Under the pieces are notes generated by a model. That model searched no databases and was not told the origin of the DNA. It was given only the letters and a program-made list of their open reading frames with translations. Of a DNA stretch of 32,000 nucleotides, positions 7,655-24,022 are shown piece after piece. The DNA is from Amycolatopsis sp. NPDC059021. GTDB lineage: Bacteria; Actinomycetota; Actinomycetes; Mycobacteriales; Pseudonocardiaceae. Every line of letters starts with the position of its first letter. Position 1 is the first letter of the stretch. Position numbers and translations under genes: made by a program. The stretch is taken from NCBI RefSeq assembly GCF_042739895.1, contig NZ_JBHYIQ010000063.1, positions 14,471 to 46,470 on the forward strand, read 5' to 3'.

Positions 7655-8209
7655 TCAAGGCGCGTCGACGAGCACGCGCCCCGCGTCGGCGTTCTGCCGC
7701 ACCAGGCTTCCGGCGTAGTTCCGTTGCACCTGCGCGGCTTCCGCGGCGTTGGGTTTCGTGTTGGCGCAGCTGACGCCACCGGTGGACCCGGACATCAGCG
7801 ACGAGCACGGACCAGGCTTCCGGTCGGGCAACCCGAGGCTGTGGCCGAGCTCGTGCGAGGCGATCCGGACCTTGTTGTAGCCCTGCTGGACGGCTTCCCT
7901 GCCGTACCAGACGGTGACCTGGCCGCCGGGACGGACGGGCCCGAGCGTGGCCCGCGGCCACCCGGGATCCGCGACCACCCGGATGTTCGCGCGTTGCCCA
8001 GGAGACGCTTTCACGATGCGCACGTTGGTCACGCTGGTGTTCCAGACGTTGACGCCCTGCGCGACCACGTCCTTGAACTCCGCGGCCTGGCTGTCGTCAT
8101 AGGTGAGCGTCGTCGCGTTGATCTCGGCCGCGGCGGCGGTGGGCACCACGGTGACCGGCAACAACAGAGCAGCACCGGCCACCACGCCGGCGAATGTACG
8201 TCGAAGCAC
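7655..8209 (-). CDS. secreted snapalysin-type (M7) zinc metalloprotease
   Basis: 184 aa with an N-terminal signal peptide (AGVVAGAALLLPVTVVPTAAAA) and the HELGHSLGLPD zinc motif (HExxHxxGxxD). Confidence 0.85.
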   Translation of the reverse strand: MLRRTFAGVVAGAALLLPVTVVPTAAAAEINATTLTYDDSQAAEFKDVVAQGVNVWNTSVTNVRIVKASPGQRANIRVVADPGWPRATLGPVRPGGQVTVWYGREAVQQGYNKVRIASHELGHSLGLPDRKPGPCSSLMSGSTGGVSCANTKPNAAEAAQVQRNYAGSLVRQNADAGRVLVDAP

Positions 8210-8636
8210 GATTTACTCCTCGGGTCGGAGCGGAGCCTGTGTCGACATCAGGGACTCGTGCGGCAGCGGGCAACGCACTGTACGTGCCCCGCCAACCTCA
8301 CAGCGTGATGCTAGAACCGCCCACACCCATTCAAAACCCGCCATAAGTCGCGAAGAACAGCGGTGGCGCATGCGTCTCGCCAGACCCAAGGCTATGCCCC
8401 GGGCTCCTCGCCCGCGGTGCGGTGCTGACCCCAGGCGAACCAACCGTAGCGCCGCTCACCGAACCGGACGCGCGGGTACGACAAACGGCCTATCGCGCGG
8501 CGCACGTTCGTGTCGATGTTCAGGCTCGCCGGTTGCCTACGGCACACGGTACCTGCGAAGGTCGTCGAGCCAGTTCGCGAGCGAATTTGATCACTATTCG
8601 TTGATGTAAGTCGAGCGCGAGACACGGGGAGGGCAC

Positions 8637-9578
8637 GTGCGGGTCATGGCGGTCATGAACTACAAGGGCGGGGTAGGGAAAACAACCATCACCGCAAATC
8701 TCGGCGCGGTCGCCGCCAGTCGCGGCTTTCGTGTACTACTCATCGACCTCGACCCCCAGACCAATTTGACCTTCTCATTTTTCTCGGTCGATGAATGGCA
8801 GGACCGCCTCAAGGACAACTATACGATCCGGCAATGGTATGACGCCGAGGTGCCCGGACGAGACAGTTCACTGGCAGACCTTGTCACCACGCCGGAGCGG
8901 GTCAACAAAGTCCTCAAGAACACTGATGGAAAGCTCGACCTGATCTCCTCCCACCTCGGTCTCATCGACATAGACCTCGAACTCGCCGCGCGGCTGGGTG
9001 GGTCCACCACCCTCGACGGGTCGAAGCGAAAGTTCCTGGATCTGCATAGTTGTCTGCGACACGCGCTGGAGGACAGCCGCTTCAGCGGCTACGACCTGAC
9101 ACTCATCGACTGTGCACCGAATTTCGGCCTGGTCACCAAGACCGCTATCGCAGCCAGCGAGAAGATCCTCGTGCCGGCCAAAGCGGACTATCTGTCCACG
9201 TTGGGATTGGACTACCTGGCGGGAAATTGCGACACACTTGTGCAACAGTTCAACGCCTACGTCGACCACAAGCGCGACAATGGAAACTACCGGCCGATCG
9301 AGCCCAGCATCCTGGGCGTGGTCTTCACCATGGTTCAGATCTATTCGCAGCGAGTGACCGCCGCTCAGCATTCCTATATCGAGCAGGTAAGGCTGAATTC
9401 GCAGGTTCCCGTGCTGAACAGTACTGTCCGTAACAGTTCCCACTTCGGCGACTCTGGCGAGAATGGCGTACCGGCCATGCTGCGCGCTGCCGGCAAGGAC
9501 GACGTGGTCAGGGAGTTCGACCAGCTGGCCGACGAGGTTCTGGGTGCGCTCGCGCTGTCGCCGGGCGGCAGCCGATGA
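8637..9578 (+). CDS. ParA/Soj/MinD-superfamily ATPase
   Basis: 313 aa with the deviant Walker A KGGVGKTT (nt 8664-8687) plus LLIDLDPQ and LTLIDCAPN motifs. An SD-like GGGGAGGG sits at 8626-8633 before GTG 8637. The stop overlaps the next start (ATGA at 9575-9578). Confidence 0.9.
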   Translation: MRVMAVMNYKGGVGKTTITANLGAVAASRGFRVLLIDLDPQTNLTFSFFSVDEWQDRLKDNYTIRQWYDAEVPGRDSSLADLVTTPERVNKVLKNTDGKLDLISSHLGLIDIDLELAARLGGSTTLDGSKRKFLDLHSCLRHALEDSRFSGYDLTLIDCAPNFGLVTKTAIAASEKILVPAKADYLSTLGLDYLAGNCDTLVQQFNAYVDHKRDNGNYRPIEPSILGVVFTMVQIYSQRVTAAQHSYIEQVRLNSQVPVLNSTVRNSSHFGDSGENGVPAMLRAAGKDDVVREFDQLADEVLGALALSPGGSR

Positions 9579-10354
9579 GCGAACTGAAGAGTTTTGTTCT
9601 CCTGCAGGCCAGGTTGTACGAGTTCCTGGCGCAACAAGACGAAACCACCCTGCAGGCGATCGTCAGTGGAGCAGCGGAACTGGCTGTTCTTCGCACCGAC
9701 GACGCACGAGCACCCGACAGCTTCGTCCCTCGCGAAGAGGTACGAAGCACTTCGCGCTCGGCATCAGCTGACCCCACCAGACCGTCCTCCGATGACCCAT
9801 ACCAGGCTGCGCGGGACCTCTCGGAGCTGACATCGGAACAGGAACGGCGACTCTACTTGAACGCGACCGGGCTGCCCGTGGCAGGACTACGGCAAGTCGC
9901 CAAGTTACGTGGCTTGGCCCGTTACAGCAGACTCAGTCGCGCCAAGCTCATAAACCTACTGGTCAGCCACGGACTGGATCAGCCCGAAGTGTTCGCGGAT
10001 CAAGCGAAGACCCCGACGCCTCCCTCCTCGGAGTCGGTCGACAGCAACTCGGAGGCCGAACCGCAAGCCACCCCCCAAGAAGCCGAGCCGTCGACCGCAG
10101 CGCCGTCGGCTGGAACCGCAACCCCAACTGCCGATGTGGCGGCCATCGCCTCGCGCTTACGTGAAACCGAGACCGAGGAAGAGGGCGCCGCGTACCTCCA
10201 CGCGCTGCGGCTGGACCGAGAGGCCCTGCTCGCTGTCGCTGCCGAGTTGCTGCTCACACGCGTGGATCGCCTGAGCCGAAAGGAACTCGAGAAGAGAGTC
10301 CTCAAACAGGCGATCGGTGCTCGGCGCAAGTTCGCCGGGCTACGGAAGTGGTGA
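9575..10354 (+). CDS. hypothetical protein with two Rho_N/SAP-like helix-extended-helix repeats and a Pro/Ser/Thr/Glu-rich linker
   Basis: 259 aa. Repeat 1 (aa 78-133) reads ..EQERRLYLNATGLPVAGLRQVAKLRGLARYSRLSRAKLINLL. Repeat 2 (aa 188-246) reads ..EEEGAAYLHALRLDREALLAVAAELLLTRVDRLSRKELEKRVL. The gene is coupled to both neighbours. Confidence 0.7.
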   Translation: MSELKSFVLLQARLYEFLAQQDETTLQAIVSGAAELAVLRTDDARAPDSFVPREEVRSTSRSASADPTRPSSDDPYQAARDLSELTSEQERRLYLNATGLPVAGLRQVAKLRGLARYSRLSRAKLINLLVSHGLDQPEVFADQAKTPTPPSSESVDSNSEAEPQATPQEAEPSTAAPSAGTATPTADVAAIASRLRETETEEEGAAYLHALRLDREALLAVAAELLLTRVDRLSRKELEKRVLKQAIGARRKFAGLRKW

Positions 10355-10360
10355 GCACTG

Positions 10361-11773
10361 GTGACCGACGAGACGACGGTAGGACGAGGCCAGGAGACCA
10401 GCGGCCGCTCGATGTACCTCATCGGTGGTCGCCGCGTCAGGATTTCAGACCTGCTGGACGCCGGTCTGATACGAGCCGGTACCAAGCTCAGGTTCAAGCG
10501 CAACCGTATCGGCGTGACCTACGACGCGACCGTAACCGAGCAGGGGAAAATCCGGCTCGATCCCGGCGGCGAGGAAATCCGCTCACCGTCGCGGGCGGCC
10601 ATGGTGGCAGCCAACATGCGTGCTGTCGACGGCTGGCGGGCGTGGCTGGTTGTCGACCAGAACCGGTTGCTGGACGCCGTGCGCCAGGAATTTCTCGATC
10701 GAGCAATTTCGACAGTGGCGACCGCGGCCAACCGGCAAACCGAGGACAAAGACCGCCAACGCATCCATACGCGGTTGAGGCAGGCGCGCAGTCGCGCCGA
10801 CGAGCACGACCCGGAGAGCATCTCCGTCCGCGAACTTCTGTCGCTCTGGGGAGCGAAGGATCGTGGCGACCAGGTCAGTCAGATTGAAGCGGACCTGGCC
10901 AACCACGGGCTGACGACGTCGCCCAGTTTCCGGGCGGTGACTCTCGACACGATGATTTCGCTGACCACACCGCTCGACGAAGCGGAGGACACCGCAGCGG
11001 CTGAGTCGCCCGAGATCGACGACATCCCGGGCGCTGAGGATGACGAGGAAGGTAACGACCTGAATGTCCGCCTGACGGTGGGGAACCTGTCCCCTCTTAG
11101 CGGCGTGGAGTTCGTCGAAGTCAACAGCACGCTTAAAGAAGCGATCACGAAGATGCTTCTCAATGACTTCTCTCAGCTCGCTGTCCTCAATGGCCCTCGT
11201 AACCTGCGCGGCGCCGTGACCTGGCGCTCGATCGCACAGGCGATGCATCGGAAATCGGACGCGAGCGTCGCCGATGCAATCGTCGCTCATGTGGAAGCCG
11301 TCGCGTACGATCGTGACCTCTTCGACGTCCTTCCCACCCTGCTACAGCGGGAGTTCGTGTTCGTCCGGGACGAAACCAAGGTCATCAAGGGCATTGTCAC
11401 GACAGCGGACGTGGCGCAGCGCTACGGCGAGATGGCCACCCCTTTCTTTCAGCTGGGCGAGCTGGATCAAACACTTCGCTGGGTCTTGAACCGCGCCTTC
11501 GACCTTCAGACCATCCGACCGCTTTGCAGCAGGAAAATCACCAGCTTCGATGATCTCACCTTCGGTGACTACCAACGCGTTCTGGAGAGCACGGGCCTGT
11601 GGGAAAAGCTGGGCTGGCCGTTGGACCGTTCTTACTTCGTCTCCCGGCTGGAGGAGATCCGGCTCATTCGCAACAAGGTCATGCACTTCCACCCCGACCC
11701 GGTACCCGAGGACGCGATCGACAAGCTACGGACCTTCAACAGCATGCTGCACCGATACCGCGATCCGGCGTAA
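10361..11773 (+). CDS. RAMA-like domain + CBS pair + C-terminal HEPN (Swt1-like) predicted RNase
   Basis: 470 aa. aa 26-97 (ISDLLDAGLIRAGTKL...SPSRAA...VDGWRAWLV) match the RAMA/DUF4357-like pattern. aa 237-355 hold two CBS motifs. aa 358-465 are helical and carry the Rx4H motif RNKVMH (nt 11669-11686). The start is GTG 10361 or ATG 10412. Confidence 0.8.
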   Translation: MTDETTVGRGQETSGRSMYLIGGRRVRISDLLDAGLIRAGTKLRFKRNRIGVTYDATVTEQGKIRLDPGGEEIRSPSRAAMVAANMRAVDGWRAWLVVDQNRLLDAVRQEFLDRAISTVATAANRQTEDKDRQRIHTRLRQARSRADEHDPESISVRELLSLWGAKDRGDQVSQIEADLANHGLTTSPSFRAVTLDTMISLTTPLDEAEDTAAAESPEIDDIPGAEDDEEGNDLNVRLTVGNLSPLSGVEFVEVNSTLKEAITKMLLNDFSQLAVLNGPRNLRGAVTWRSIAQAMHRKSDASVADAIVAHVEAVAYDRDLFDVLPTLLQREFVFVRDETKVIKGIVTTADVAQRYGEMATPFFQLGELDQTLRWVLNRAFDLQTIRPLCSRKITSFDDLTFGDYQRVLESTGLWEKLGWPLDRSYFVSRLEEIRLIRNKVMHFHPDPVPEDAIDKLRTFNSMLHRYRDPA

Positions 11774-11804
11774 TCAGCCGACACCTACCCAACGTGACCA
11801 CCCA

Positions 11805-11858
11805 GGGGTCCGGGGCTTGCCCCCAAACGGGGTGTGGGGTTTGCACCTTCACAAAACA
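11805..11858. repeat. bipartite repeat, copy A (partner at 27758-27813)
   Basis: GGGGTCCGGGGC (11805-11816), an 18-nt GC-rich self-complementary spacer, TGGGGTTTGCACC (11835-11847), then AAAACA (11853-11858). The same blocks occur in the same order and spacing at 27.8 kb. Confidence 0.45.
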
Positions 11859-11871
11859 CGCGGAACGCAAA

Positions 11872-11900
11872 AGGCTCGTGCTCTCCGCGAGCACGAGCCT
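11872..11900. terminator. perfect 12-bp stem-loop (terminator-like)
   Basis: AGGCTCGTGCTC-tccgc-GAGCACGAGCCT. On the minus strand it is followed by TTTT, so it is a possible terminator for the BREX operon. It could also act for the plus-strand three-gene operon, but without a U-tract. Confidence 0.45.
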
Positions 11901-11905
11901 CCTAG

Positions 11906-12346
11906 CGTGGACCTTGGGGAACTTACTACAACACAAAAACCCAGGTAGAAGCCCTGGAGGCCCTACTCCAGGAACTACCAGACTCCACCGAACCGACTCC
12001 ACCACCCGTCGACCGACTCAAACTTCGACGGGCACGCCAGCTCGACGCGGACGAGGCCCAGGCACTCATCGCCGCCTACCAAGCCGGAGCCACGGTGTAT
12101 AAGCTGGGTGCCCGGTTCGGAATCGAACGGCGGACGGCCAGCAACATCCGCAAACAACACGACGTGTCGATACGCAGATGCGGCCTCTCGCCCGAGCAGA
12201 TCGACCACGCCATCCACCTCTATAACCTCGGTCGACCCCTCGCCCGAGTCGGCGAACACCAGGGCGTCCACCACACCACCGTACTGACCAAACTCCGCGA
12301 ACGTGGTATTCCCACCCGGGACACCCATGGACGCCCACGGGCTTGA
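11906..12346 (+). pseudogene. double-HTH (resolvase/HTH_7-like) protein remnant lacking a plausible start
   Basis: The frame is open from 11906 and encodes ..LDADEAQALIAAYQAGATVYKLGARFGIERRTASNIRK.. and ..LSPEQIDHAIHLYNLGRPLARVGEHQGVHHTTVLTKLRERGI.. The only ATG/GTG/TTG start (GTG 12095) falls inside the first HTH unit. Confidence 0.45.
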
Positions 12347-12406
12347 TCTGACCATGCCTTCCTTCTCCTGTTGCTGGCGGGCGAACTCCAGGCGCTTGAC
12401 CCGAGA

Positions 12407-14554
12407 TCAGGCACCGATGCTGTGGTCCGCATTGTCCAAAGCACGAAGATACGTGACGCCAAAGGCCTTGATCTCGCGGTGTTTCTGGTACCTCGTGGCG
12501 AGATCGAACGGACCGTCACTCGTGCGCTGGAAGATGTCGAGGCCGCGCCCGAGCAGGATTTTCCAGCCGGTATCGGTGCTGATCGAGCGGTCGTGGACCG
12601 ACTGGGGATCGACGAAATCGACGTCGAAGACGATGCCAAGCGCGGCTGTGCTCTGCTTGATCTGCACGAGGTACTCGTACTGCTTCTGCAGCTTCTCCCG
12701 GCCGTCCTGGTTCTCGACCGTGATGAGCTTGATCGCAACCTCGTCCGCGGGGTCCTTGCCGCGAGCGATCGCCTCGGCGAGCTCCATCAGGTTCCTGGCT
12801 TGGTGGAACAGGCGCACGTAGGGATCAACGATCGTGATCTGCGAGGCACCCTGCAAGTACGGGACCAGCAGCATGTCATACGAGACGCCAATTTGACCTT
12901 CTTGGTACTCTCGATGTCCCTGAAACAATTCAGGCTTGGACTGTGTGACCTTGTCAGGGTCAGCAGTGCCAGCGGACGCCGCGCCCGCTCCCCGCAGATC
13001 TGCGTTTGCCGGTGCCTCAACCGGATCACTGCCCTTGCGCACCCGGTGGTAGTGCGCGGGGTACTCGTCCTCCTCACGCGTAGCGACGGTGTACCAGGTG
13101 CCTTCCTTGTCGAGGTAACCGAACTTCACCTCGGCCATGGTCGAGTCGATGCGCAGAATCTGGTCCTTGACGCGTTTACGTCCCTCGATGGCGATCCGTA
13201 GGAGTTCCTCGATCTCCTTTCGGGTGGCCTCGCCGCCTGGATAGAGGATCTTCATCAGGCCGGAGAAGGTCTTGTGAATACCGTCGCGGTCACGGGTCGA
13301 GATGTCGGACGATAGCGTGAAGTGCTGCTGGTAGCGGTCGGAGTAGTCCTGCGAGCGCATCGACTTGAGAACTTCGGCGATGTAGTCGACGACGAACCCG
13401 TAGCCGTCGGAGAACATCTCGCCACGGATGATGTCCACCTCCCAGCCGGGGATGTAGTGGTGCAACCGGTCGAGGTAGGCCGGGTCGTGGTAGGCCTCAG
13501 GCAGTTCGTCGAACAGGTCGGAGTGCCTGAGCATGTACGGCACGGTGTGCGAGGTGTTACCGACGAATACCATCGACGCCTCGGCGCCCAGCGTCTCGAC
13601 ACCACGGGAGAACGATTTGTTCGCCATGTAGTTCTTCATGATGTCGACAAGCGCCTTGTCCGTGCGCTTCTTCTTGCCGGCGAACTCGTCGAAAGCGACG
13701 ACGTCCCAGTAGCCGACAAGGCCGATGCGTCCGTTGGAGTTGTTGACGAAGAGCTTGGGGACGGTAACCTCGCCACCGGATACCAACATTCCGTGGGGCG
13801 AGAACTCCGAGAAGATGTGGGACTTGCCCGTCCCCTTGGGGCCGAGCTCGACCAGGTTGTAGTTGCGCTCGACGAACGGAATCAGACGCACGAGCTGGAA
13901 GAACTTCCCCCGCCTGCTGAACATCTCGGGGTTGAACCCGATCGATTGCATAAGCAGGTCGATCCACTCGTCGGTGGTGAATCCGCGCCGCCCCTCGAGG
14001 TACTGGTCGACATCGAACCTCGACAGCTGAATAGGCTTGATCGAGCCGAGGATCCAAGGTGCGACACGCTGGTCATCGCTGTGGAAGTATTCGATATCGC
14101 AGATACACCAGACGCCACCAACGAGGAGCTTGGGGTGCGCCTTGATCGTTGGCGACTCGACGACCACGCCCATGATGCCGAGGTTGGCGAACTCGGCTTG
14201 ATAGACATCAGCCTTCTCATTGAGGGTGACGGTGACCTTATCAATGATCCGGTGGCGACCGCGCTCTTTGATCGTGGACTTGACCAGCTCGGACTCGCTG
14301 CGATGGACATAGTGTTCGGCGAGGATCTTGCGCACGGTGTCGATGCCAGCCTGGATGGTGGCTTCGTCATCCGAGGCTGCATATTGCCCAAGGAGGTATT
14401 CGAGGACATAGGACGGCACGACGGCGTTGCCCTTGACGGTCTTGACCAGGTCCTTGCGGACGACGACTCCGGGGAACAGCAGGTTGATCTTGTAGTCGAG
14501 ATCGCTCTGCTGCGGTGCGCCGGCGTCGGGCGCCTCGTTCTGGGTCTCGCTCAT
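12407..14554 (-). CDS. brxL: BREX type 1 BrxL (Lon-like protease/AAA+ protein)
   Basis: 715 aa and the last gene of the operon. Walker A GPKGTGKS is at nt 13820-13843. Size and position match BrxL. An SD GGAGGGGA precedes ATG 14554. Confidence 0.9.
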   Translation of the reverse strand: MSETQNEAPDAGAPQQSDLDYKINLLFPGVVVRKDLVKTVKGNAVVPSYVLEYLLGQYAASDDEATIQAGIDTVRKILAEHYVHRSESELVKSTIKERGRHRIIDKVTVTLNEKADVYQAEFANLGIMGVVVESPTIKAHPKLLVGGVWCICDIEYFHSDDQRVAPWILGSIKPIQLSRFDVDQYLEGRRGFTTDEWIDLLMQSIGFNPEMFSRRGKFFQLVRLIPFVERNYNLVELGPKGTGKSHIFSEFSPHGMLVSGGEVTVPKLFVNNSNGRIGLVGYWDVVAFDEFAGKKKRTDKALVDIMKNYMANKSFSRGVETLGAEASMVFVGNTSHTVPYMLRHSDLFDELPEAYHDPAYLDRLHHYIPGWEVDIIRGEMFSDGYGFVVDYIAEVLKSMRSQDYSDRYQQHFTLSSDISTRDRDGIHKTFSGLMKILYPGGEATRKEIEELLRIAIEGRKRVKDQILRIDSTMAEVKFGYLDKEGTWYTVATREEDEYPAHYHRVRKGSDPVEAPANADLRGAGAASAGTADPDKVTQSKPELFQGHREYQEGQIGVSYDMLLVPYLQGASQITIVDPYVRLFHQARNLMELAEAIARGKDPADEVAIKLITVENQDGREKLQKQYEYLVQIKQSTAALGIVFDVDFVDPQSVHDRSISTDTGWKILLGRGLDIFQRTSDGPFDLATRYQKHREIKAFGVTYLRALDNADHSIGA

Positions 14555-14567
14555 CGCAGCTCCCCTC

Positions 14568-17063
14568 CTAGAAGTCGAAGTCCGACGCGAACGAACGCTT
14601 CAGCGTGTAGGCCGCCCTGCGGAAGACTCGCCACTGGTTGGTGTTGGGGATCCGCTCCTCCAGGCGGAACTCCACGGCTCGGTTGTTGTAGCCGCTCGAC
14701 TCCTGACTGAGCAGCATCCGGGCGCTCTGGTACCGGTCGCGCTTGTCGGCCGAGGTCTGATCGAAGGTCAGGTCGACGAGGTTGGAGATCAGAGTCTCGC
14801 CGACGTAGAGCCCGGCCCTCAGCGTGCGGGGCCGGACCTTGTCGCTGACTGGCTCGGTCTGGAAGAGCCGGACGACGACCTGCCCGGTGGTGATCTTGTC
14901 GGATTCCGGCCAGACCTCGACGTTGACCAGCCGGGTGTCGCTCTTACGCTTCTTGTTGACCGCCAGAACCGGCACGACGATCTCTTGAAGCGCCGCCCCG
15001 CCGTGGACGAAGCGCGAGCCGCCACCGGGCAGCTTCAGCCGGTGGATCGACTTGGGGATCTGTACTTCCAGGTCGCTCTCAAGCCCGAGCTGGGCGGCGT
15101 CGAAGGCGGCGAAGGCAGTGTCGACCTTGAGGCCGTTGCCCAGCACGAAGCGTCGTTTGACGACCTTGATGTCATCGCCCTGCGGCTGAGTCGACAGGAA
15201 GAATGTGTCGGCCAGCTCCTCATCCTGGAACAGGAAGCCATGGTCGGCCGTGACGAAGATATTGGTGGCGTTGGCGCTGGCCAACTTCTTCACCAGGTCG
15301 ACGATATCGCGCAATGTGTCATCGACGGCTTCGAAAGTCTTACGCTCGGTAATGTGACTGTCGCCCGTAGCATCGATCTGATTGTGGTAGACGTACAGAA
15401 CCCGGTTGGCCTTGTACAGCTCGCGCCGCTCGTCAGCGTTCAAGGCCTTGAATTCCTCGGCCTGGATCGCCGAGCCGCCGACACCCCCCAGGATCTTGCC
15501 GCGGAAGGCGGTGTTGTTGGTCGGCTGGCCGTCGGCCATTACGGTCTTGGCGTCAAGCGAATGCTTAAGCGTCGAATGCGGCAGCAGCGCCGCCATGCCG
15601 AGCTGGGTGTAGCTCGGCAGCACTCCGAGGACGGCGTCCAGGTTGGCATCGAAGCGGTCCTCCTGCCGGATGAGTGAGCCAAGCTCGTCGGCCACTTCGT
15701 AGCGCAAGGCATCAGAGATGATGACCACGGCCTTCTTGTCGCCGTCCCGCACCAGCGGCTCGACGTAGCGAGAGTAGAAGGCGGCCTGCGAAGGCAGCAT
15801 CGTCGAGCGCCACCGCTCAACTTGGTCGAGCTGCTGCTGCCAGGCGTTACCCAGCTCGTAGACGTACTTGTTGGTGTAGCGCTTCTCAACCACCTCGCGC
15901 AGCGCTTCGAGGGGCTTCGGGTACTCCGCCGTGCGGGCAGCATAGACAAACTGCCGGTAGAGCTGGTCGATGCGGAACCACTCGCGTCGGTAGCGCTCCA
16001 ACCCGTCGTCGAACGACTCCATGCCGAGATTCAGCGAGGCTAGCTCGCCGAGCAGCTTCGACGCCCGGGCAACGGCTGTGTATAGCTGCTTGTAGTTGTC
16101 GATCCAGAAGCTGTTCTGCCGAGCCCGGACCGTCTCGTCCACCTCGCGCGGGGTGACAGTCTGTTCGGCTACCGCCCGCCCCAGGTCGCTGATGATCTTC
16201 TGGTCGGTCTCTTCGAACAAGTCGACGGTTACCAGGTCACGGAAGCTCGTGTCCTCGATCCTCGACTTGTAGTCCAGGTCGTGGGCTGCCCGCTTGGCAA
16301 GCGTGGCCATGGCCGCCTGACTACGCCGGTCGTTGCGCAGGCTGGCGAAGTCGAGCTGGATGTTCCGCAGTCCGCCCTGGCGGTCGGACTTGAAACCCTC
16401 GATGGCCTTAAGGAAGATCCACAACACCAGGTCGTCGATGCTCGGCGAGGACGACTCGTAGCCGTAGATGCTGGCGACGCCGCGCCAGTAGAAGTCATCA
16501 AGGCCATAGTCGACGAGAGCGTCGTACTTGGCGTGAGCCCCCTTGGCGTTCTCCGTCAGTAACGTCCTGGTGATCTCCAGCAGACTATGCTCGCGTTGGC
16601 CAAGCACGACAGCGCTGATCTTGGCTCGCAACCTGACAGCGTCGTCCTCCGAGCTCAGCAGTGCCTTGAGACTGTGGACGCGCTTGGCCGCGTTGAAGAA
16701 CTTCTCGTGGGTCTGGACGACCTCGTCGATACCCTGGCCGACCAAGCCCAGGTCCTGAGCCACCAGAGCCGTGCGGTCGGCCGTGAAGACTCCATAGGCC
16801 AGCTCCAGATCGAGCAGCCAATTCCCGATGCCACTCGGCACCGGCCCTGAACGGTAGACGAGAAATTTGCCCTTAGGCTCGTCACGCAGCAGCCGGTTCT
16901 TGATACCGAACTCGTCATTAGAAACCCGGATCGTCTGGACACCCGGCAGGTCGAGACTGTCCAGATCCTCGATGTACTGACCATCCGGGTCGTGCCAGAA
17001 GACAATCCGGCGGCTGTCAAACCAGCGCAGCAGGTGCGGGCGGACCGAAGTAACGTCACTCAT
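14568..17063 (-). CDS. pglZ: BREX PglZ (alkaline-phosphatase-superfamily protein)
   Basis: About 831 aa with PglZ-domain motifs VVIISDALRYEV and IFVTADHGFLF. ATG 17063 overlaps the pglX stop (ATGAGTGA). The listed TTG 17075 is less likely. Confidence 0.92.
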   Translation of the reverse strand: MSDVTSVRPHLLRWFDSRRIVFWHDPDGQYIEDLDSLDLPGVQTIRVSNDEFGIKNRLLRDEPKGKFLVYRSGPVPSGIGNWLLDLELAYGVFTADRTALVAQDLGLVGQGIDEVVQTHEKFFNAAKRVHSLKALLSSEDDAVRLRAKISAVVLGQREHSLLEITRTLLTENAKGAHAKYDALVDYGLDDFYWRGVASIYGYESSSPSIDDLVLWIFLKAIEGFKSDRQGGLRNIQLDFASLRNDRRSQAAMATLAKRAAHDLDYKSRIEDTSFRDLVTVDLFEETDQKIISDLGRAVAEQTVTPREVDETVRARQNSFWIDNYKQLYTAVARASKLLGELASLNLGMESFDDGLERYRREWFRIDQLYRQFVYAARTAEYPKPLEALREVVEKRYTNKYVYELGNAWQQQLDQVERWRSTMLPSQAAFYSRYVEPLVRDGDKKAVVIISDALRYEVADELGSLIRQEDRFDANLDAVLGVLPSYTQLGMAALLPHSTLKHSLDAKTVMADGQPTNNTAFRGKILGGVGGSAIQAEEFKALNADERRELYKANRVLYVYHNQIDATGDSHITERKTFEAVDDTLRDIVDLVKKLASANATNIFVTADHGFLFQDEELADTFFLSTQPQGDDIKVVKRRFVLGNGLKVDTAFAAFDAAQLGLESDLEVQIPKSIHRLKLPGGGSRFVHGGAALQEIVVPVLAVNKKRKSDTRLVNVEVWPESDKITTGQVVVRLFQTEPVSDKVRPRTLRAGLYVGETLISNLVDLTFDQTSADKRDRYQSARMLLSQESSGYNNRAVEFRLEERIPNTNQWRVFRRAAYTLKRSFASDFDF

Positions 17064-20000
17064 CGCTGGCCCCAAGACCGGCGATCTTCTTCAGGGCGGC
17101 ACCGAACTTCGGGTAGTTCGCCTTCACACCGTCGTCCAGGTCGATCGCCAGCTGACGAGAAGCCAGTGGGTACAACACGTCGTGCTCGTACTCCTCAAGC
17201 TCCACAAGCACCTTGCGCAACCGATCGGCCTCCTTCTGAGCCGCCGCCTGCTGACGTGGCGTACCGCCGCCAGCCGCCAGGCGCTCCTGCTGCTGCAGGC
17301 TCGACGAGAGCTTGGCCCGGAACTCGCGCAGGTACTCGTTGAGCACAGTCGAGACTGTGGACGGCGTGTAACGGTGCATGTAGATCAGGGCGTTGAACGA
17401 GCCCTTGGGGCTGGAGAAGAGCCAATAGATCGGGCGCTTCTTGTACCGTTGTACGTGGTCCTTGTAGAAGGACCTCACGAAGTAGTCACGGATGTTCTTA
17501 ACACCGAGCGACTCGGTCACGAAGCGCAGGTTTTCCTCGAAATGCTGCTCTCCGAAGGCCGCACGGAGGAACGTGCGGAAGCGAGCAACGATGTCGTCCT
17601 CGAACCAATCCCCATTCACAACGGGGATGACGTTGTCCATGTCTGGAGCGAACGTCGGGCTTGGCACCTTGGCGAGGTAATTCTGGACCGTGGCACCCTG
17701 GTCGGCGAGGATGAGCCCCGGCTCATCCAGGCTGTAGCGACCGAACATGCAGCCGATGGCGTAGGAGACGAAGTCTTCGACCAGGAGCCGAGCAGCGGCC
17801 AGCCGATCGCGGAGACAATCGTCAATGAGACCAGTCGGACGCTGAGCCTCCAGTGCGAACGCATCCTCACCAACTGCGCCAGAGGCTCGGAAGTGGTCTT
17901 CAATCTCCCGCTCGATCCCCAAGATAGCGTCCTCCTGCGCGAGCCGCTCAGCACAGTCGGCCTCAAGAGCGTCCCGAGTCTTGAGTAAGGCTTCGCTCGA
18001 CCGAAGGTGGGAACCGCTGAACGATGGAGATGTCTCCAGCCGGCTCCAGATAGCAGTTGCGTGGGCCAGCGCCTGCTCGACGCGGGCGGTCACGAAGGTC
18101 GGATCGTTCGGCGGGATGACAGGGATACGACCGACGGGACCCTCGTGATAGTCCAAGGTTGGAGACAGAGAGTCGATCAACTCCCGAGCGATCGGCGTGT
18201 TCAGATAGCCAAGCAACCAGCGAAGGTCGCTCTCTCGCGACGGGAACAGCATCGAGCCCTTCGTCTCAAAGATATATCCAGCGGGAGAGAACCGCATTGC
18301 GAACTCGCCCGACAGGCTCGACCAGGTTGCTCCCTCCCGGAAGTAGTACGCTGTATTCTGGGCTCGCGACTTGGGCCGACCGCCTGACTCGGCACCAAAG
18401 GCCCTGATCTCCTTGCCGTCTTCGTACCAGTCGACGATATACTCATCATTGCCAGCCCATCGGCGTGGAGTTCCTCCCTTCTGCAAAGGGAACCACTTGG
18501 CCTTCGAATTTGCAGCCTCAGTGCCGTCGGTTGCGTTTCGATTGGTCCGCGAAGCCGACACCTCCCACCAATAGCGAAGGAAGCGGTTATTGTCGCCCGT
18601 CGCAAGCCCCTGACGCGTCACCCCAAGCGTTGAGAGTGGGGGGAAGTCACGGTAGATGGCGAGCTCCTCCGGTCGCAACCAGTAGGCGAACGGACTGCCA
18701 TCAATGCCAAGGAATAAAAACTGCTTAACGACAAAACTCTGATACGTGGGGTTAAGAAAGAATTGCTCAAGCGCGTCCCGCTGCCTCACTTCGAGCGCAC
18801 GCTCATAGAGCTTCCGATAGATAGCGGAACAGTTCACGTCAGGCTTGGACCGCAGGACAACAAATGCCGCCGAAGCCCAGTCGGACCCGAAGACGCCACG
18901 GCCGAAATGCACAAGGCTCGTGAGAATATTTTCCGACAGGAATAAGCGTCGCCAATCCGCGAATGACGACTGGAACATCCAGCCATGCGGAGAGATAATG
19001 CCCCAAGCTCCGCCCCCGAGACACAAGGAAGCCGCCCGTTCCATGAACATGTTGTAGAAGTCAGACCTCGTCATCGGGAAGTTGTTCTTGGCAAACCGAA
19101 CAAGCACGTCGCCCATGCTGTTGCTACCCATGTAGGGAGGGTTTGCGACCACTACAACATACCGCGGCGCAAGGTACTCGGCCTGGAGAACGACCCGCTC
19201 GGCCCGATCAAGCAGGTCGGTCAGGAGAATATCCGTGCCATCGTCGAGTTCGGAGAGGTGCTGCTTGAGACTAGCGGTGAGCTCGGGGTCAGGCTGAATC
19301 AGTGATCCAAGGACGTCCCCGTGCTCGAACTGGTTCCAGAACGCCGACTCAGCATCACGGTCACCGCCACGTATCAGCAGGAAGTCAATCTCGGCCAGTG
19401 TGAAGCGGATCGGTTCGAGGACGCAGACGTTGGGCTCGATCTGTTTGTTGAAGAACATGCGCTGCTTCGCGCGGGCCTTCATCGTCAGGGCGAAGGCTGC
19501 AAGTGCCCCAGCACGCGGGTCGATCTCGATCCCGTAGAGATTGTTGGTCAGGATGAGCCCAGGAATCTCGGCCGGGGCGTAGCCCTCTTCCTCATAGATG
19601 GCGTAGAGCAGGTCGAAGGCATAGGTCAGCATGTGTCCAGAACCACAGGCGGGGTCGACGACCTTGAGCTCCTTGGGGCCACCGATCTTGAGGAAGTCGG
19701 TCTCCTCGTCGGCTGGGGCGATGTAGTACTGCATCTGGTCAACGAGCCGAGAAGACGGACGATTGAGCATCCACAAGCGACCGAGGGAGTTCTCGACGAG
19801 GTAGCGGACGATCCAGTGCGGCGTGAAGAGCTGAGTGGCTGCGGGGATCTCGTCTGCGCCGGCCTTCTTGTTCTTCTTGAAGCTGGCGAAGACCTCATCT
19901 TTGCGCTCCGAGATGTAGAATTGGTACAGCCAGCCGATCACCTCGACGTTCTGGCAGGCATCGGAGGTGAGTACTTTGACGGCACGGCTCAGCACCGAGT

Positions 20001-20547
20001 CGTCGGCCAGCAGGTTAGCCGGGATGAGCAGCTCGGTAAAGTCGCCCTCCCGCTCGAACATGAACGGCATGGCGCGGTTCCAATAGCGGCAATAATCCGC
20101 GAGCAGCAACGCGTAAGCCTCGCTTTGAGCGTCGCCGCTGCGCCGGGTACCATTGAGGAGACTCATCACCATCTCGCGAGTCTTGGTCCCGACCACCGTG
20201 GCGTCGATGTTGCCGCGCTTGGCTTCGGCCAGGATCTCGGGCTGACCTGACTCGACGCCAGGCTGTGGCGAGACGACTCCGACGCCGGTGTATCCGTTGG
20301 CGTCCATGAAACGCAGGGCGATGATCCGGTTGAACCAGGTGTAGGCGCCCCGATCGGCAACCACCGTTTTGCCCTTGTCGCCGCCACCAGCCGTCGCGAT
20401 GGCCTTCTCCAGGGCTTCTACGGCCCCGGGTTGCTCGACCCGCTCGAGCGAGGCTTGGGCCAGCACCACGGCGATACGCGCGCTCACCTCGCGAATGAGC
20501 GCCGTACGTGCCCAGGTGGCGAACGACTTCAGCGGTGCGGTTTCCAT
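17056..20547 (-). CDS. pglX: BREX PglX N6-adenine DNA methyltransferase
   Basis: 1163 aa. The SAM motif I VVDPACGSGHML is at nt 19627-19662, and the catalytic motif IV NPPY is at nt 19132-19143. The start overlaps the brxC stop (TGATG). Confidence 0.95.
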   Translation of the reverse strand: METAPLKSFATWARTALIREVSARIAVVLAQASLERVEQPGAVEALEKAIATAGGGDKGKTVVADRGAYTWFNRIIALRFMDANGYTGVGVVSPQPGVESGQPEILAEAKRGNIDATVVGTKTREMVMSLLNGTRRSGDAQSEAYALLLADYCRYWNRAMPFMFEREGDFTELLIPANLLADDSVLSRAVKVLTSDACQNVEVIGWLYQFYISERKDEVFASFKKNKKAGADEIPAATQLFTPHWIVRYLVENSLGRLWMLNRPSSRLVDQMQYYIAPADEETDFLKIGGPKELKVVDPACGSGHMLTYAFDLLYAIYEEEGYAPAEIPGLILTNNLYGIEIDPRAGALAAFALTMKARAKQRMFFNKQIEPNVCVLEPIRFTLAEIDFLLIRGGDRDAESAFWNQFEHGDVLGSLIQPDPELTASLKQHLSELDDGTDILLTDLLDRAERVVLQAEYLAPRYVVVVANPPYMGSNSMGDVLVRFAKNNFPMTRSDFYNMFMERAASLCLGGGAWGIISPHGWMFQSSFADWRRLFLSENILTSLVHFGRGVFGSDWASAAFVVLRSKPDVNCSAIYRKLYERALEVRQRDALEQFFLNPTYQSFVVKQFLFLGIDGSPFAYWLRPEELAIYRDFPPLSTLGVTRQGLATGDNNRFLRYWWEVSASRTNRNATDGTEAANSKAKWFPLQKGGTPRRWAGNDEYIVDWYEDGKEIRAFGAESGGRPKSRAQNTAYYFREGATWSSLSGEFAMRFSPAGYIFETKGSMLFPSRESDLRWLLGYLNTPIARELIDSLSPTLDYHEGPVGRIPVIPPNDPTFVTARVEQALAHATAIWSRLETSPSFSGSHLRSSEALLKTRDALEADCAERLAQEDAILGIEREIEDHFRASGAVGEDAFALEAQRPTGLIDDCLRDRLAAARLLVEDFVSYAIGCMFGRYSLDEPGLILADQGATVQNYLAKVPSPTFAPDMDNVIPVVNGDWFEDDIVARFRTFLRAAFGEQHFEENLRFVTESLGVKNIRDYFVRSFYKDHVQRYKKRPIYWLFSSPKGSFNALIYMHRYTPSTVSTVLNEYLREFRAKLSSSLQQQERLAAGGGTPRQQAAAQKEADRLRKVLVELEEYEHDVLYPLASRQLAIDLDDGVKANYPKFGAALKKIAGLGASDE

Positions 20548-23500
20548 CAGAGAGAGATTCGCTTTCCGTCGTTCAGGGTCTGGACGAGTGCTGTGCGCAA
20601 GGCGGCAAGATACCGATCGACGTCCTCTTCCGTTTCCAGCACACCCGAGACGCCGGTGGCTGAGATGGCCTTGACCGACACGGTCTGCTTCGGTGGAGAA
20701 GCATCGTCTCCTCCTCCACCCTGCGTTGATGCGGCCAGCAGATCGAGCAAGCCCGGATAAACGGACGCCTCGAAGCTCGAGCCGATCTCCCGGATGAGGG
20801 CGATCTGGTCTTGGGAGCGGACGTGGGAGACTGTCTGGTCAATTCGGCCAAGCACGCTCTTCTGGGCATCCAGCGCTGCCTTGGCGTAAATGGCAGTCGC
20901 TTTGATCTCAGCCTTACGTCCCTCGATTGCCTCGACGACCTCCGCGCAGTTCGACGCGACGACTTCGTCGATCTGGGCGCGTAGCTGGTCGTTGGCTTGC
21001 TTGAGCTGGGCCATCTTGCTGCCGCGAAAGGCGTTCGGGTCGTCCAGGGCAGCGCGCACCGCAGTGTCGCTCCCAGACGGCAGATAACCGAGGTTGATGC
21101 TGTGAGTGGCCAACAGATCGACAGCCTGGTCGTAGATGACCTTTTGGCCACCGCTGAGGAATGCCTGGATCGGGTCAATCGTGCTGTCCTTGGCGTCGAG
21201 CAAGTCGTCGCCAAGGTTGAAGTCGGTCAGGTACCAGTCGTCGGGTTTTCCGACCACTCGGTCAAGCAGGGCGATCGGAGTGGAGAGCTCCGCCACGAAG
21301 GGGTACTTCGAACCCGTGATGGTCGCGTTGAGCTCGTCGCGCTTGGCCTTCAGCTTGTCGGCCCCGTGGCGGGCGAGTTCCAGCGGGTCTTTGGGGGTGT
21401 TGCCCTCGTCGAAGAAGTCGGTGCAGAACTTGCGGAAGGCGGCGACCTTGTGCTCGTCGAAAGTCTTTTGGGGAGACACCACGACGTGTGCGTGCTTCTG
21501 GGTGTTGCGCAGGACAGCGGCAGCTTCGGAACGTTTGAGGACATTCCCGTCGACCGTGAGCGTGAGCTTGGATGTGCCCACCAGGAAGGCGATCAGAACC
21601 TCGATCGAGGCTAGGTCCCAGCCGTAGGGCTTCGCCGTGAAGCTGTCGACGATGGTCCTGATCGTGACCTGCTCACCGAGCGCCTCCTTGCGGAGAACGA
21701 AGGACAACACCTCCTCCGTTGGGGCGAAGAGCTTGCTGGCGGTATCTGCATCGAACAGCCCGCTGTCGGGCTTGACAGCCGCGGCGACCTGCTGCTCGCT
21801 GTAAGTCGTACCGCCGAGCAGCTTGAGCTGAGAATAGGTGCGGCTGACGAGGTCCTGGAAGCCGTCGGTCACTCGAACGAGCGCGTCCTGGGAGCTTGGG
21901 GTGATGTCGGCGGCGTTGATGACCAAAGAGGACTTGCCCACCGAGGCCTTTACCCGCTCGATGAGCTCCTTCTCGCGGCCGATGTTCTGTGCACCCTTGG
22001 TCTGCAGGATCTGGCCCTCGATGACCGAGATCGAGTTGCTCTGCTTGCGCTTGATGTACTTCTCGGTCCTGACCAACAACCTCAGATCCGAGAGCACTCG
22101 GGCGTCCGGTTCGAGGATGACGCGCAGCTCGTCCTTGCCCGCGCTGTGCATGCGGATCTCTTCGGGCGAGTGCGGATACTCCGGCGAGATGAAGTGGATC
22201 GCCAGCTCGCGCTGCGGACCATGGGCCTGGTCGTCGAGCTTGAAGCCGAACGGGAAGTCCTGACCGTTCTTGACGTAGCGGATCTTGTTCGTCTTGATGA
22301 CGTCGCCCGAGAGCATCTTGAACAGCCGCGCGCTGATTTCGGAGTCGTCGATGTCGACGTTCTTGATCTCTTCCTCGATGACCTGCTCTTCGTTGGTCAG
22401 ATACTCATAGGCGTTGCCGTTGCGCTGAATGTAGGTCTGCGCCTCCAGCACGGTCAGCGCTTCCTTAACCTGCTCCGAGAGCGCGGGAAGGTCGAGGCCG
22501 AAGTGGTCGTAGACCAGCACCGTGAGGTTGCGCCGGGTCGCCTGAAAGCTCTCGACGTATTTGACCAGGAACAAAGCCTTGAGCAAGCGGACTGCCAGCG
22601 GGTTGTCGAGGTTGCGCTCGGCGACGTCGATCGAGCGCTGGGCGGCCGACTTCAGCGCGGCGCGGATGCCGGCGAACATGCTGTCGAACGTGGCGAGCTT
22701 GCCTACCTCAACATTGCCGACGTCCTTGGCGACCTGCTGGACGACGCCGAGCAACGAGCGCTCGCCCACCGACCTGTTGCGCCCCTCGAAAACGTTATGG
22801 TCGGAGAGGCCCTCGATCGCGGCCTGGAACAGCGGGAACTGATAGCTGACGAACGGGTAGGTCCCGACGAAGTGGGATTCGTCGGTGTAGTTGCGGTAGG
22901 TCTTGGCCCCGTCGACGAAGTCGAACAGCGTTTTGAAGTTAGCGTGCTGGTCGGCGTGGATCGTACTCAACACAGCCGCACCGGCGTCGTTCTTCTCAAG
23001 CAGACGCTTGCGGATGACCTCCTCAACATCGGCACTGGTGAGTTTGAGGCGAGTCTTGAAGCGGGCCTGGATCTTGGAGAAGTCGTTGCCCTGCTGTCTG
23101 GTCCGGTCGCCGATGACCTTATCCATGTCCTCCTGCGAGGTCACGAAAACCCACGCCCGGCCAGAGCACCTGGTGTTGAGCGACTCGGTGATGGTCTGCA
23201 GGTTGAGCATCAGCTTGGTGTCCGAGCCGATGAACTGGCCGACCTCGTCGACGAAGAACGCCAGCCGGAAGGTCGGGTCGCCCTGCTTGTCCAGCCAGGC
23301 CTTGACCTCGTTGGCGAAGTCGTCGATCGAGACGGAATACGAGGCGCTGTACTGCTGGATGATGCTGTCGGCGGTCCCGCCATTGACCTCGGCGAAAGCC
23401 TGGTCGATGCTCGGACCTTCCAACGCGCTCTGCTCGCGTCCCTGTGTCCAGGGGATCCCGGCGATGCGTTCGAACGCCGATTGGAAGGCCGCGTACTGGC

Positions 23501-24017
23501 CGCGGTTGTCTAGATCGCGCTCGAACCGGGCGACATGGCCGTGGTTGCCGTAGTAGCCGCAGCTCTCGTCAAACACCTTGACGAACACCTTGAGCAAAGC
23601 GTCGGTTTGGTCCTTGCTGATCAGGTTGGCCTTTTGGTCGATGTTGAACAACAGGCTCTTGGCGGGAATACGGTCGGCCTTGTTGAGCAGGCCTGGGAGA
23701 AAGGCGTCAGAGCTCTTCGCCCGGAAGCTGTCAGAGACGCTCTGGCGCGGGTAGTCTTGACCCTCGACGTCACCGAGGAGGTGGGCGAGCATTTTGAGCA
23801 TGTGCGACTTGCCGGAGCCGAAGAAGCCGGAGATCCACACACCGTTGGCGTTGGTGTAGGACGTGTACTCCTCAAGTAGAAGCTCCAAGCCCTTCGCGGC
23901 TTCGTTGGTCAGGACGTACTCCTCGACCTCAGTGCCCAAGTGTGCGACGTCGTCGGCCTTAATAACGCCTTCGATCGGGCGCTGGATGTCCTTGGCGAAA
24001 ATCTCGCTGAGCTGCAT
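20547..24017 (-). CDS. brxC: BREX BrxC (large P-loop ATPase)
   Basis: Walker A GFFGSGKS is at nt 23805-23828, and Walker B-like FFVDEVGQF is present. The N-terminus MQLSEIFAKDIQRPIEGVIKADD is typical of BrxC. ATG 24017 lies 10 nt after AGGAGG. The listed GTG 24026 is an alternative start. Confidence 0.92.
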   Translation of the reverse strand: MQLSEIFAKDIQRPIEGVIKADDVAHLGTEVEEYVLTNEAAKGLELLLEEYTSYTNANGVWISGFFGSGKSHMLKMLAHLLGDVEGQDYPRQSVSDSFRAKSSDAFLPGLLNKADRIPAKSLLFNIDQKANLISKDQTDALLKVFVKVFDESCGYYGNHGHVARFERDLDNRGQYAAFQSAFERIAGIPWTQGREQSALEGPSIDQAFAEVNGGTADSIIQQYSASYSVSIDDFANEVKAWLDKQGDPTFRLAFFVDEVGQFIGSDTKLMLNLQTITESLNTRCSGRAWVFVTSQEDMDKVIGDRTRQQGNDFSKIQARFKTRLKLTSADVEEVIRKRLLEKNDAGAAVLSTIHADQHANFKTLFDFVDGAKTYRNYTDESHFVGTYPFVSYQFPLFQAAIEGLSDHNVFEGRNRSVGERSLLGVVQQVAKDVGNVEVGKLATFDSMFAGIRAALKSAAQRSIDVAERNLDNPLAVRLLKALFLVKYVESFQATRRNLTVLVYDHFGLDLPALSEQVKEALTVLEAQTYIQRNGNAYEYLTNEEQVIEEEIKNVDIDDSEISARLFKMLSGDVIKTNKIRYVKNGQDFPFGFKLDDQAHGPQRELAIHFISPEYPHSPEEIRMHSAGKDELRVILEPDARVLSDLRLLVRTEKYIKRKQSNSISVIEGQILQTKGAQNIGREKELIERVKASVGKSSLVINAADITPSSQDALVRVTDGFQDLVSRTYSQLKLLGGTTYSEQQVAAAVKPDSGLFDADTASKLFAPTEEVLSFVLRKEALGEQVTIRTIVDSFTAKPYGWDLASIEVLIAFLVGTSKLTLTVDGNVLKRSEAAAVLRNTQKHAHVVVSPQKTFDEHKVAAFRKFCTDFFDEGNTPKDPLELARHGADKLKAKRDELNATITGSKYPFVAELSTPIALLDRVVGKPDDWYLTDFNLGDDLLDAKDSTIDPIQAFLSGGQKVIYDQAVDLLATHSINLGYLPSGSDTAVRAALDDPNAFRGSKMAQLKQANDQLRAQIDEVVASNCAEVVEAIEGRKAEIKATAIYAKAALDAQKSVLGRIDQTVSHVRSQDQIALIREIGSSFEASVYPGLLDLLAASTQGGGGDDASPPKQTVSVKAISATGVSGVLETEEDVDRYLAALRTALVQTLNDGKRISL

Positions 24018-24022
24018 CGAGC

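Follow-up and report, generated by a model that had tools for sequence, protein, structure and literature searches.

A RAMA-fused DS-11-family protein encoded beside a ParA-like ATPase in a conserved actinomycete operon

The window analysed here is a 32,000-nucleotide stretch of DNA from the actinomycete Amycolatopsis sp. NPDC059021, and its gene at 10361–11773 encodes a putative effector in which a RAMA domain, a pair of CBS motifs and a HEPN-type domain are joined in one polypeptide. From its sequence, we assign this protein with high confidence to the DS-11 family of antiphage proteins, as a RAMA-fused member with the architecture just described. The gene is preceded by genes for a ParA-like ATPase and for a smaller protein with a Rho_N-like motif (here called the adaptor), and the succession of ParA, Rho_N-motif protein and RAMA–CBS–HEPN protein appears to be an undescribed system architecture in actinomycetes. 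Taken as a whole, these features are best explained by an abortive-infection-type defence in which the RAMA-fused DS-11 effector would act as a nucleotide-gated HEPN RNase within a ParA–adaptor operon, a reading that we consider probable. A sequence-only reading of the window had portrayed the protein as an unusual sensor–effector fusion, encoded by a stand-alone gene, with a Swt1-like HEPN domain. All three domains withstood closer analysis; the rarity of the fusion, the Swt1-like label and the isolation of the gene did not.

Architecture of the effector and membership of the DS-11 family

The open reading frame (ORF) is present on the + strand as the sequence-only reading had placed it, and its product, 470 residues long, is identical to a database entry from Amycolatopsis sp. 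NPDC059021. An alternative in-frame ATG (M18, nucleotide 10412) is the annotated start in many homologues, and no domain is affected by the choice. The parts of the gene are as follows.

10361–11773, + strand: gene 3 of the operon, the RAMA–CBS–HEPN effector, GTG start, 470 residues
10400–10702, + strand (residues 14–114): RAMA domain (PF18755), a predicted DNA-binding or modified-DNA reader module
10814–10966, + strand (residues ~152–202): small alpha/beta N-terminal domain of the DS-11 core, aligning with DS-11 residues 25–75
10976–11071, + strand (residues 206–237): acidic disordered linker, with an AlphaFold2 confidence score (predicted local distance difference test, pLDDT) below 50
11096–11428, + strand (residues 246–356): CBS pair, from PF00571 and alignments to CBS pairs in the Protein Data Bank (PDB)
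11429–11770, + strand (residues 357–470): C-terminal all-helical HEPN-type domain, from the AlphaFold2 model and homology to DS-11
11669–11686, + strand: predicted catalytic Rx4H motif, R437-N438-K-V-M-H442, with R437 at 11669–11671 and H442 at 11684–11686

Residues 157–463 of the effector match the NCBIfam model NF053863 (DS11_antiphage, ‘CBS domain-containing anti-phage protein’) over its entire length (positions 1–305 of 305), scoring 279.1 bits where the curated cut-off is 260. DS-11, from Escherichia coli (WP_000257686.1, 365 residues), is a CBS–HEPN system made of one protein, and it was discovered by DefensePredictor (DeWeirdt et al., Science 2026 / bioRxiv 2025; PMC13092281). It protects E. 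coli against phage, and defence is lost in the Y157A (CBS), R330A and H335A (HEPN) variants; in the AlphaFold3 prediction, the protein is a dimer and each protomer has one ATP (PMC13092281). For comparison, we used the 365-residue E. coli ORF that has Y157, R330 and H335 at the published positions. BLASTP aligned residues 130–464 of the effector with residues 4–357 of this protein at 32% identity (E = 6e-52), placing DS-11 Y157 at F270, R330 at R437 and H335 at H442.

The two proteins share the small N-terminal domain (modelled by AlphaFold2 with a pLDDT of ~75–89 in the window protein), the acidic linker, the CBS pair and the HEPN domain, and the three positions that are essential for defence in DS-11 are kept. 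Residues ~127–470 thus amount to a complete DS-11 unit, to which RAMA is an N-terminal addition. The window protein differs from DS-11 in this extra N-terminal region of ~125 residues, in the aromatic residue at the CBS site (tyrosine in DS-11, phenylalanine in the protein from this high-GC actinomycete) and in its genetic setting. DS-11 is a single-gene system with no ParA near its E. coli locus, whereas the window gene stands third in an operon, after those for the ParA-like ATPase and the Rho_N-motif protein, as do its relatives at 54 of 56 loci in the clade. The sequence-only reading could name no characterised relative for the architecture; its CBS–HEPN core is in fact a named family, and such fusions were catalogued in 2013. 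A literature search found no paper on a CBS–HEPN protein with RAMA or with ParA.

Conservation of the HEPN motif and the CBS ligand site

An exhaustive search with the core (residues 157–470) returned 2,120 representative clusters at E ≤ 0.001, including 556 at E ≤ 1e-30. In an alignment of 126 homologues with 25–50% identity to the query, just five columns are invariant: T347, D350, R373, R437 and H442. Because so few columns of the whole alignment are invariant, the conservation of R437 and H442 is far beyond chance. N438 is present in 125 of the 126 sequences, and the family motif reads R-x-I-R-N-D-V-M-H-F-x-P-D-P. The C-terminal string EEIRLIRNKVMHFHPD, which contains R437 to H442, was confirmed in the effector, and the nucleotide coordinates first given for its Rx4H motif are exact. 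In the small N-terminal domain, the residues R168, L179, L184 and P188 are each kept in at least 90% of the same 126 homologues.

The two CBS motifs proposed from the sequence are likewise borne out. PF00571 matches two stretches of the effector (32.6 bits against a cut-off of 24), and CBS-pair proteins of solved structure in the PDB align across residues 246–356. The invariant T347 and D350 lie within G344-h-h-T347-x-x-D350 of the second motif, the pattern by which CBS domains canonically bind the ribose of adenosyl ligands. At position 270, which aligns with DS-11 Y157, the residue is tyrosine in 71 and phenylalanine in 50 of the 126 homologues, so that 121 have one or the other.

Assignment of the C-terminal domain

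We accept the C-terminus as a putative member of the HEPN superfamily because four lines of evidence converge: the invariant R-N-x3-H, weak Pfam matches that agree with one another, an all-helical AlphaFold2 model and homology to the mutationally validated HEPN domain of DS-11. When 34 divergent C-terminal domains were scanned singly against Pfam, sub-threshold matches were obtained to HEPN_RiboL-PSP in eight (best E = 0.0015) and to HEPN_Swt1 (PF18731) in five (best E = 0.0095); further sub-threshold matches were to DUF4145 and HEPN_Cthe2314, in four domains each, and to pEK499_p136 in one. The AlphaFold2 model of residues 356–470 (pLDDT 93.7) consists entirely of helices, six in number, and a profile of the domain gave no meaningful match to PDB sequences.

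Of the earlier ‘Swt1-like HEPN’ label, the second word thus survives. The first is unproven, since the Swt1 matches are sub-threshold, weaker and fewer than those to RiboL-PSP and absent from the window copy. CBS(+HD)-fused HEPN domains, such as that of alr3009, were previously placed in a Swt1-like group (Anantharaman et al. 2013, Biol Direct 8:15). The window protein resembles these in joining a CBS module to a HEPN domain with an active-type Rx4-6H motif, an arrangement that is predicted to link the cutting of RNA to the sensing of a ligand. It differs in lacking HD and in carrying RAMA, and the Swt1 matches of its family are no better than those to other HEPN families. None of the findings that the sequence-only reading had named as telling against it (a non-HEPN C-terminus, poor conservation of RNKVMH or an N-terminus unrelated to RAMA) was obtained.

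The RAMA domain and the spread of the fusion

The N-terminus had been called RAMA-like, and it matches PF18755 over residues 14–114 with E = 4.7e-21, at 75.2 bits against a Pfam gathering threshold of 35.2. Weaker matches were found to the C-terminus of the PADLOC MTase_II model, which covers type II and orphan adenine methylases (E = 1e-4), and to the C-terminus of CcrM in NCBIfam (E = 0.024). A RAMA family profile detected, among PDB sequences, residues 280–360 of CcrM (6pbd; E = 1.1e-4) and residues 61–156 of human MPND (7ydt; E = 1.8e-4); the single RAMA sequence gave no match to PDB sequences. The C-terminal domain of CcrM contacts DNA, and the RAMA domain of MPND binds DNA. The N-terminus of the window protein is a genuine RAMA domain by Pfam, linked by the family profile to both structures; theirs sits on a methyltransferase or a deubiquitinase, whereas that of the window protein sits on a putative RNase effector. 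RAMA has been described as a reader module for modified bases, and its fusions are known in BREX-related systems (PMC12839542).

The resemblance noted earlier between residues 26–97 of the effector and the ORF at 26981–27262 reflects real homology, since both match PF18755 (E = 8.1e-14 for the ORF, covering profile positions 30–104 of 107); when the copies are compared directly by BLASTP, the match is weak (E = 8e-5). This ORF belongs to a second RAMA gene (26427–27262, + strand) that a frameshift near 26985 splits into ORFs at 26427–27005 and 26981–27262. The upstream part (26427–27005) has no family match, and the split gene is either a pseudogene or the result of a sequencing error.

The fusion itself is common. 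The best 120 clusters (90% identity) in a word-indexed search were all full-length RAMA–CBS proteins, from Amycolatopsis, Nocardia, Saccharopolyspora, Actinophytocola and their relatives. In a survey of 151 architectures, comprising 150 core representatives at 50% clustering and the window protein, RAMA is present in at least 40, ~73 have the ‘short’ form seen in DS-11 and a few are much longer. With at least 40 of the 151 sequences and at least 120 clusters bearing it, the RAMA–CBS–HEPN fusion is not the unusual construction it had been taken for. Pfam scans of the longer relatives, and of one that is differently extended, found the core joined to HsdM_N + N6_Mtase + RAMA, to a ResIII/SNF2 helicase + RAMA, to a Ser/Thr kinase and to Mrr_N. 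These alternative front ends occur in proteins P0126, P0133, P0148, P0131, P0181 and P0177, all from other organisms, the last being a protein of 448 residues with Mrr_N. By its sequence associations, the CBS–HEPN unit is a portable effector module that is often wired to restriction-type DNA-sensing domains. Its fusion elsewhere to methylase + RAMA, SNF2 + RAMA, kinases and Mrr_N supports the role of a defence effector tied to restriction-type DNA sensing.

A conserved three-gene operon

The effector is the last gene of a three-gene cassette, the other elements of which are given below.

8637–9578, + strand: gene 1, ParA/MinD-type ATPase of 313 residues, with the deviant Walker A motif KGGVGKTT (signature lysine K10, Walker lysine K15)
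9575–10354, + strand: gene 2, the middle ‘adaptor’ protein of 259 residues; searches of Pfam, NCBIfam and PADLOC gave no match for the window copy
11872–11900, + strand: perfect 12-bp hairpin, AGGCTCGTGCTC N5 GAGCACGAGCCT, ~100 nucleotides past the effector stop, a possible operon terminator

The product of gene 1 matches AAA_31 (E = 3.7e-34), CbiA (E = 1e-19) and ParA in Pfam; in NCBIfam, it reaches no equivalog and has partial matches to RepA, ParA and SopA. The adaptor is built from a conserved N-terminal helix of ~40 residues, a variable low-complexity linker rich in P, A, S, T and E, a SAP/Rho_N-like motif and a conserved basic C-terminal module of ~75 residues that ends in QAIGARRKFAGLRKW. 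Its family is small, with just 182 clusters, all annotated ‘hypothetical’ and from the same taxa, many of them with a precomputed PF07498 (Rho_N) call. We found no adaptor paired with other effectors, and the family is confined to this cassette. A strong Shine–Dalgarno sequence, GGGGAGGG, precedes the GTG start of the ParA gene, the ParA stop and adaptor start overlap as ATGA (as they do in nearly all loci), and the adaptor stop lies 6 nucleotides before the effector GTG. These junctions point to a single transcript, and the genes are probably coupled in translation.

A scan of 185,579 species genomes (one genome per species, with patterns biased to this clade) yielded 56 loci, from Pseudonocardiales, Nocardia, Micromonosporales and Fodinicola. 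ParA lies directly upstream, at 56–81% identity, in 54 of the 56, and a gene of 145–280 codons occupies the adaptor position in 53, including those of Micromonosporaceae; the effector had been read as a stand-alone fusion, which this arrangement contradicts. Conservation of the ParA motifs KGGVGKTT, DLDPQ and LIDCAPN reaches at least 95%, and the ATPase is apparently active. Mean identity is 72% for ParA and 67% for the effector, and the pairwise-identity matrices of the two are correlated (r = 0.91). The three genes are co-inherited, and the operon appears to pass from one genome to another as a whole. The window effector is 72–77% identical to Nocardia copies and 67% identical to some Amycolatopsis copies, which suggests horizontal movement of the cassette.

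Several cassettes have decayed (L050, L049, L054, L055 and L003). The effector of L050, from Nocardia jiangxiensis (L050:10001–10871), lacks residues 244–423, and those of L049 and L054 are frameshifted; the partner genes are intact in L050 and L049. In a decayed Dactylosporangium locus, only the adaptor tail and RAMA remain.

A ParA/ParB-type partition system formed by genes 1 and 2 was considered and rejected: the deviant Walker A motif is present, but a ParB or ribbon–helix–helix (RHH) homologue and centromere-like repeats are not. Pfam and NCBIfam gave no ParB or RHH match for the middle protein, and a search of the window and of four other loci found no centromere-like repeat arrays. ParA–ParB and McdA–McdB positioning systems resemble the cassette in setting a deviant-Walker-A ATPase beside a small partner that combines a low-complexity linker with a conserved terminal peptide. 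The cassette differs in that it shows no homology to ParB, RHH proteins or McdB, has no centromere-like repeats and lacks an obvious cargo besides the putative RNase. Its likeness to ParA/MinD-type positioning systems may serve as a lead.

Reach of the ParA–adaptor partnership

A scan of metagenomes with a hand-made degenerate DNA pattern of the signature motif gave 54 loci, just two of which have ParA and the adaptor, both near the actinomycete clade. Some ParA-less RAMA–CBS–HEPN genes lie in other apparent operons, one with an Eco57I-type methylase and a protein of 1,403 residues (L094:39–8581) and another with an ORC/Cdc6-like AAA ATPase (L073:4943–9068); these arrangements could represent further multi-gene forms of the system. 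The contigs of two divergent representatives (P0121 and P0122) are shorter than 2 kb, too short for context. Because metagenomic RAMA-fused genes and E. coli DS-11 occur without ParA, the ParA–adaptor partnership is a lineage-specific elaboration and characterises neither the family nor the RAMA fusion.

Around the cassette, no other neighbour is common to more than 19 of 57 loci (the 56 genome loci and the window). The nearest flanks are heterogeneous, with 105 families among 97 proteins, including cytochrome P450s, hydrolases, major facilitator superfamily transporters and TetR regulators. With regard to carriage by phages or viruses, there were no phage matches, and no relatives were found in the viral collection. 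Plasmid matches were to the short form of CBS–HEPN, none spanning RAMA.

In the window, the cassette converges on a complete type 1 BREX (bacteriophage exclusion) system.

12407–25350, − strand: complete type 1 BREX system, convergent with the cassette
12407–14554, − strand: brxL
14568–17075, − strand: pglZ
17056–20547, − strand: pglX
20547–24026, − strand: brxC
24023–24622, − strand: brxB
24619–25350, − strand: brxA

After its BrxL_N and BrxL ATPase domains, BrxL of the window has a C-terminal, phospholipase-D-like MIT_C domain (PF16565; residues 556–704, E = 1.3e-37). An ORF of 80 codons just upstream of brxA (25304–25546, − strand) has a weak match to HTH_17, of excisionase type, under the Pfam cut-off (E = 7.6e-5). 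Between the effector and brxL, an ORF of 83 codons (12095–12346, + strand) looks like a helix–turn–helix protein and has homologues in L011 and L029 and no family match. Cassette and BREX system are both contained in a low-GC island at ~8000–28000 (0.58–0.66, against ~0.68–0.73 in the flanks), the right edge of which is a tRNA-Ala(cgc) gene at 27865–27938 (− strand). No att-like repeat of 12 nucleotides or more and no integrase were found at this tRNA edge. At the left edge lies a gene for a Streptomyces-type M7 extracellular neutral protease (7655–8209, − strand; Peptidase_M7, E = 6.9e-22), and the gap of 430 nucleotides between it and the ParA start holds no recognisable gene.

Discussion

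The sequence-only reading had proposed that a reader of DNA or its modification and a sensor of an adenosyl ligand are coupled to an RNase that responds to infection. This proposal is partly supported, in that it fits the mutant data for E. coli DS-11. By analogy with DS-11, the effector may be of homodimer type, its CBS pair binding an adenine-nucleotide-like ligand and so gating a composite HEPN RNase site that contains R437 and H442. RAMA could attach the effector to DNA or read the state of adenine methylation. In characterised members of the family, ATP-bound ParA binds the nucleoid non-specifically. An ATP-bound ParA dimer and the adaptor might accordingly hold the RNase inactive on the nucleoid, or license it there, until a change linked to infection released or activated it to cut RNA and arrest the infected cell. 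Candidate triggers would be a shift in the adenine-nucleotide pool, felt by the CBS pair; loss or alteration of host DNA; and foreign DNA without the methylation pattern of the host, perceived through RAMA or ParA. We place moderate confidence in a defence role for the effector and low confidence in any specific role for ParA and the adaptor. The RNase activity, the ligand and the DNA specificity of RAMA are predictions, and the phage defence by DS-11 is a result for the E. coli homologue. More tentatively, and with rather more doubt than belief, we suggest that ParA, the Rho_N adaptor and RAMA–CBS–HEPN might form an undescribed three-component immune system for nucleoid surveillance, in which an ATPase of the ParA type, a class otherwise familiar from the positioning of DNA and cargo, would be repurposed as a sensor or safety catch that watches the state of the host chromosome or for incoming foreign DNA and controls a nucleotide-gated RNase, itself tethered to DNA by its RAMA domain.

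Several observations weigh against the preferred account of an abortive-infection-type defence. The effector itself matched no HEPN model of Pfam even at E ≤ 10, a Foldseek comparison of the C-terminal domain model with the PDB found no significant structural match, and the full-length AlphaFold2 model is poor in the RAMA region. In E. coli, DS-11 functions by itself, so that partners may be unneeded for the basic mechanism, and at least 13 metagenomic RAMA-fused genes with at least 3 kb of upstream sequence have neither ParA nor the adaptor. In L003, from Amycolatopsis, ParA is frameshifted and the effector intact, which argues against ParA as a strictly essential antitoxin. Finally, a census of the flanks showed no enrichment of defence or mobile-element genes, the cassette usually lying amid ordinary metabolic genes, so that defence genes are its neighbours, and lend support by association, in this window alone.

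One rival reading is a toxin–antitoxin or addiction module, in which the HEPN RNase would be the toxin and the ParA-like ATPase, with the adaptor, an antitoxin acting by nucleotide-dependent binding or modification; the cassette would then persist because cells that lose it die. Such a module would be compatible with defence; on balance, we think it unlikely, while granting it a serious share of the probability. Dyads of ParA/Soj with a HEPN protein of the MAE_18760 family were predicted to be toxin–antitoxin pairs with the ATPase as the antitoxin (Anantharaman et al. 2013, Biol Direct 8:15), and they provide a precedent. The cassette shares with them a ParA/Soj-type ATPase gene upstream of a HEPN RNase gene in one operon; it differs in the HEPN family, in the CBS and RAMA domains of its effector and in the cassette-specific gene that lies between. 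To our knowledge, the prediction for these dyads has had no experimental test. An addiction module would also suit the tight coupling and co-inheritance of the genes, the occurrence of the cassette alone in unrelated chromosomal contexts with signs of horizontal spread, and the decayed copies, in most of which the effector is broken and the partners are intact (L050 and L049). Against it stand the frameshifted ParA of L003 beside an intact effector, the toleration of the homologous E. coli protein as a single gene that defends against phage, and the many RAMA–CBS–HEPN genes without ParA. Another rival is a stand-alone DS-11-type effector that simply adjoins a separate partition or maintenance module made of the ParA-like and middle genes. 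In its favour, DS-11 consists of one protein and has no ParA close to its E. coli locus, and ParA proteins, including the RepA, ParA and SopA families to which gene 1 has partial NCBIfam matches, usually serve the segregation of DNA or cargo. We regard this separation as improbable, given that the genes are adjacent in 54 of 56 genomes, from at least three orders of actinomycetes, and have frames that overlap or nearly abut, that no plasmid, integrative conjugative element or phage genes are conserved alongside, that the adaptor family occurs only with the cassette and that the trees of ParA and of the effector agree (r = 0.91).

The ordinary metabolic genes at the flanks would also accommodate a housekeeping role, in which a nucleoid-associated RNase, its CBS pair sensing AMP, ADP or ATP, tunes RNA stability to energy charge with no phage conflict, and CBS–HEPN proteins were first proposed as regulators of RNA stability that respond to nucleotide ligands (Anantharaman et al. 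2013, Biol Direct 8:15). The patchy distribution (56 matches in 185,579 species genomes, from scan patterns biased to the clade), the signatures of horizontal transfer, the frequent decay, the fusion of the core to restriction-type modules elsewhere and the experimental defence phenotype of the E. coli homologue together make such a role very improbable. The scarcest probability falls to the effector as a BREX accessory, with RAMA reading the adenine methylation made by PglX and the RNase backing up the adjacent type 1 system. The setting in the window invites this idea, since the operon convergently adjoins brxL, one gene of a complete type 1 BREX system, in a low-GC island bounded by tRNA-Ala, and RAMA fusions occur in BREX-related systems (PMC12839542). 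The convergent orientation implies that the two are not co-transcribed, and the idea is largely refuted by co-occurrence, as none of the 56 loci has BrxA, BrxB, BrxC, PglX, PglZ or BrxL within 10 kb.

For the preferred reading, that of a RAMA-fused DS-11 effector in a ParA–adaptor defence operon, the parts already known are the DS-11 core (2025/26) and the CBS–HEPN fusions (2013); what is new is the actinomycete cassette of ParA, adaptor and effector. The RAMA-fused DS-11 subfamily is widespread. The CBS–HEPN core is repeatedly wired to DNA-sensing modules (RAMA, methylase + RAMA, SNF2 + RAMA and Mrr_N), which points to the state of DNA as part of the trigger. Because the cassette usually lies outside defence islands, island-based screens would miss it. 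If ParA and the adaptor do regulate the RNase, ParA-family proteins would have gained an immune function not seen in them before, and it would give a first handle on the ParA/Soj–HEPN pairs predicted in 2013.

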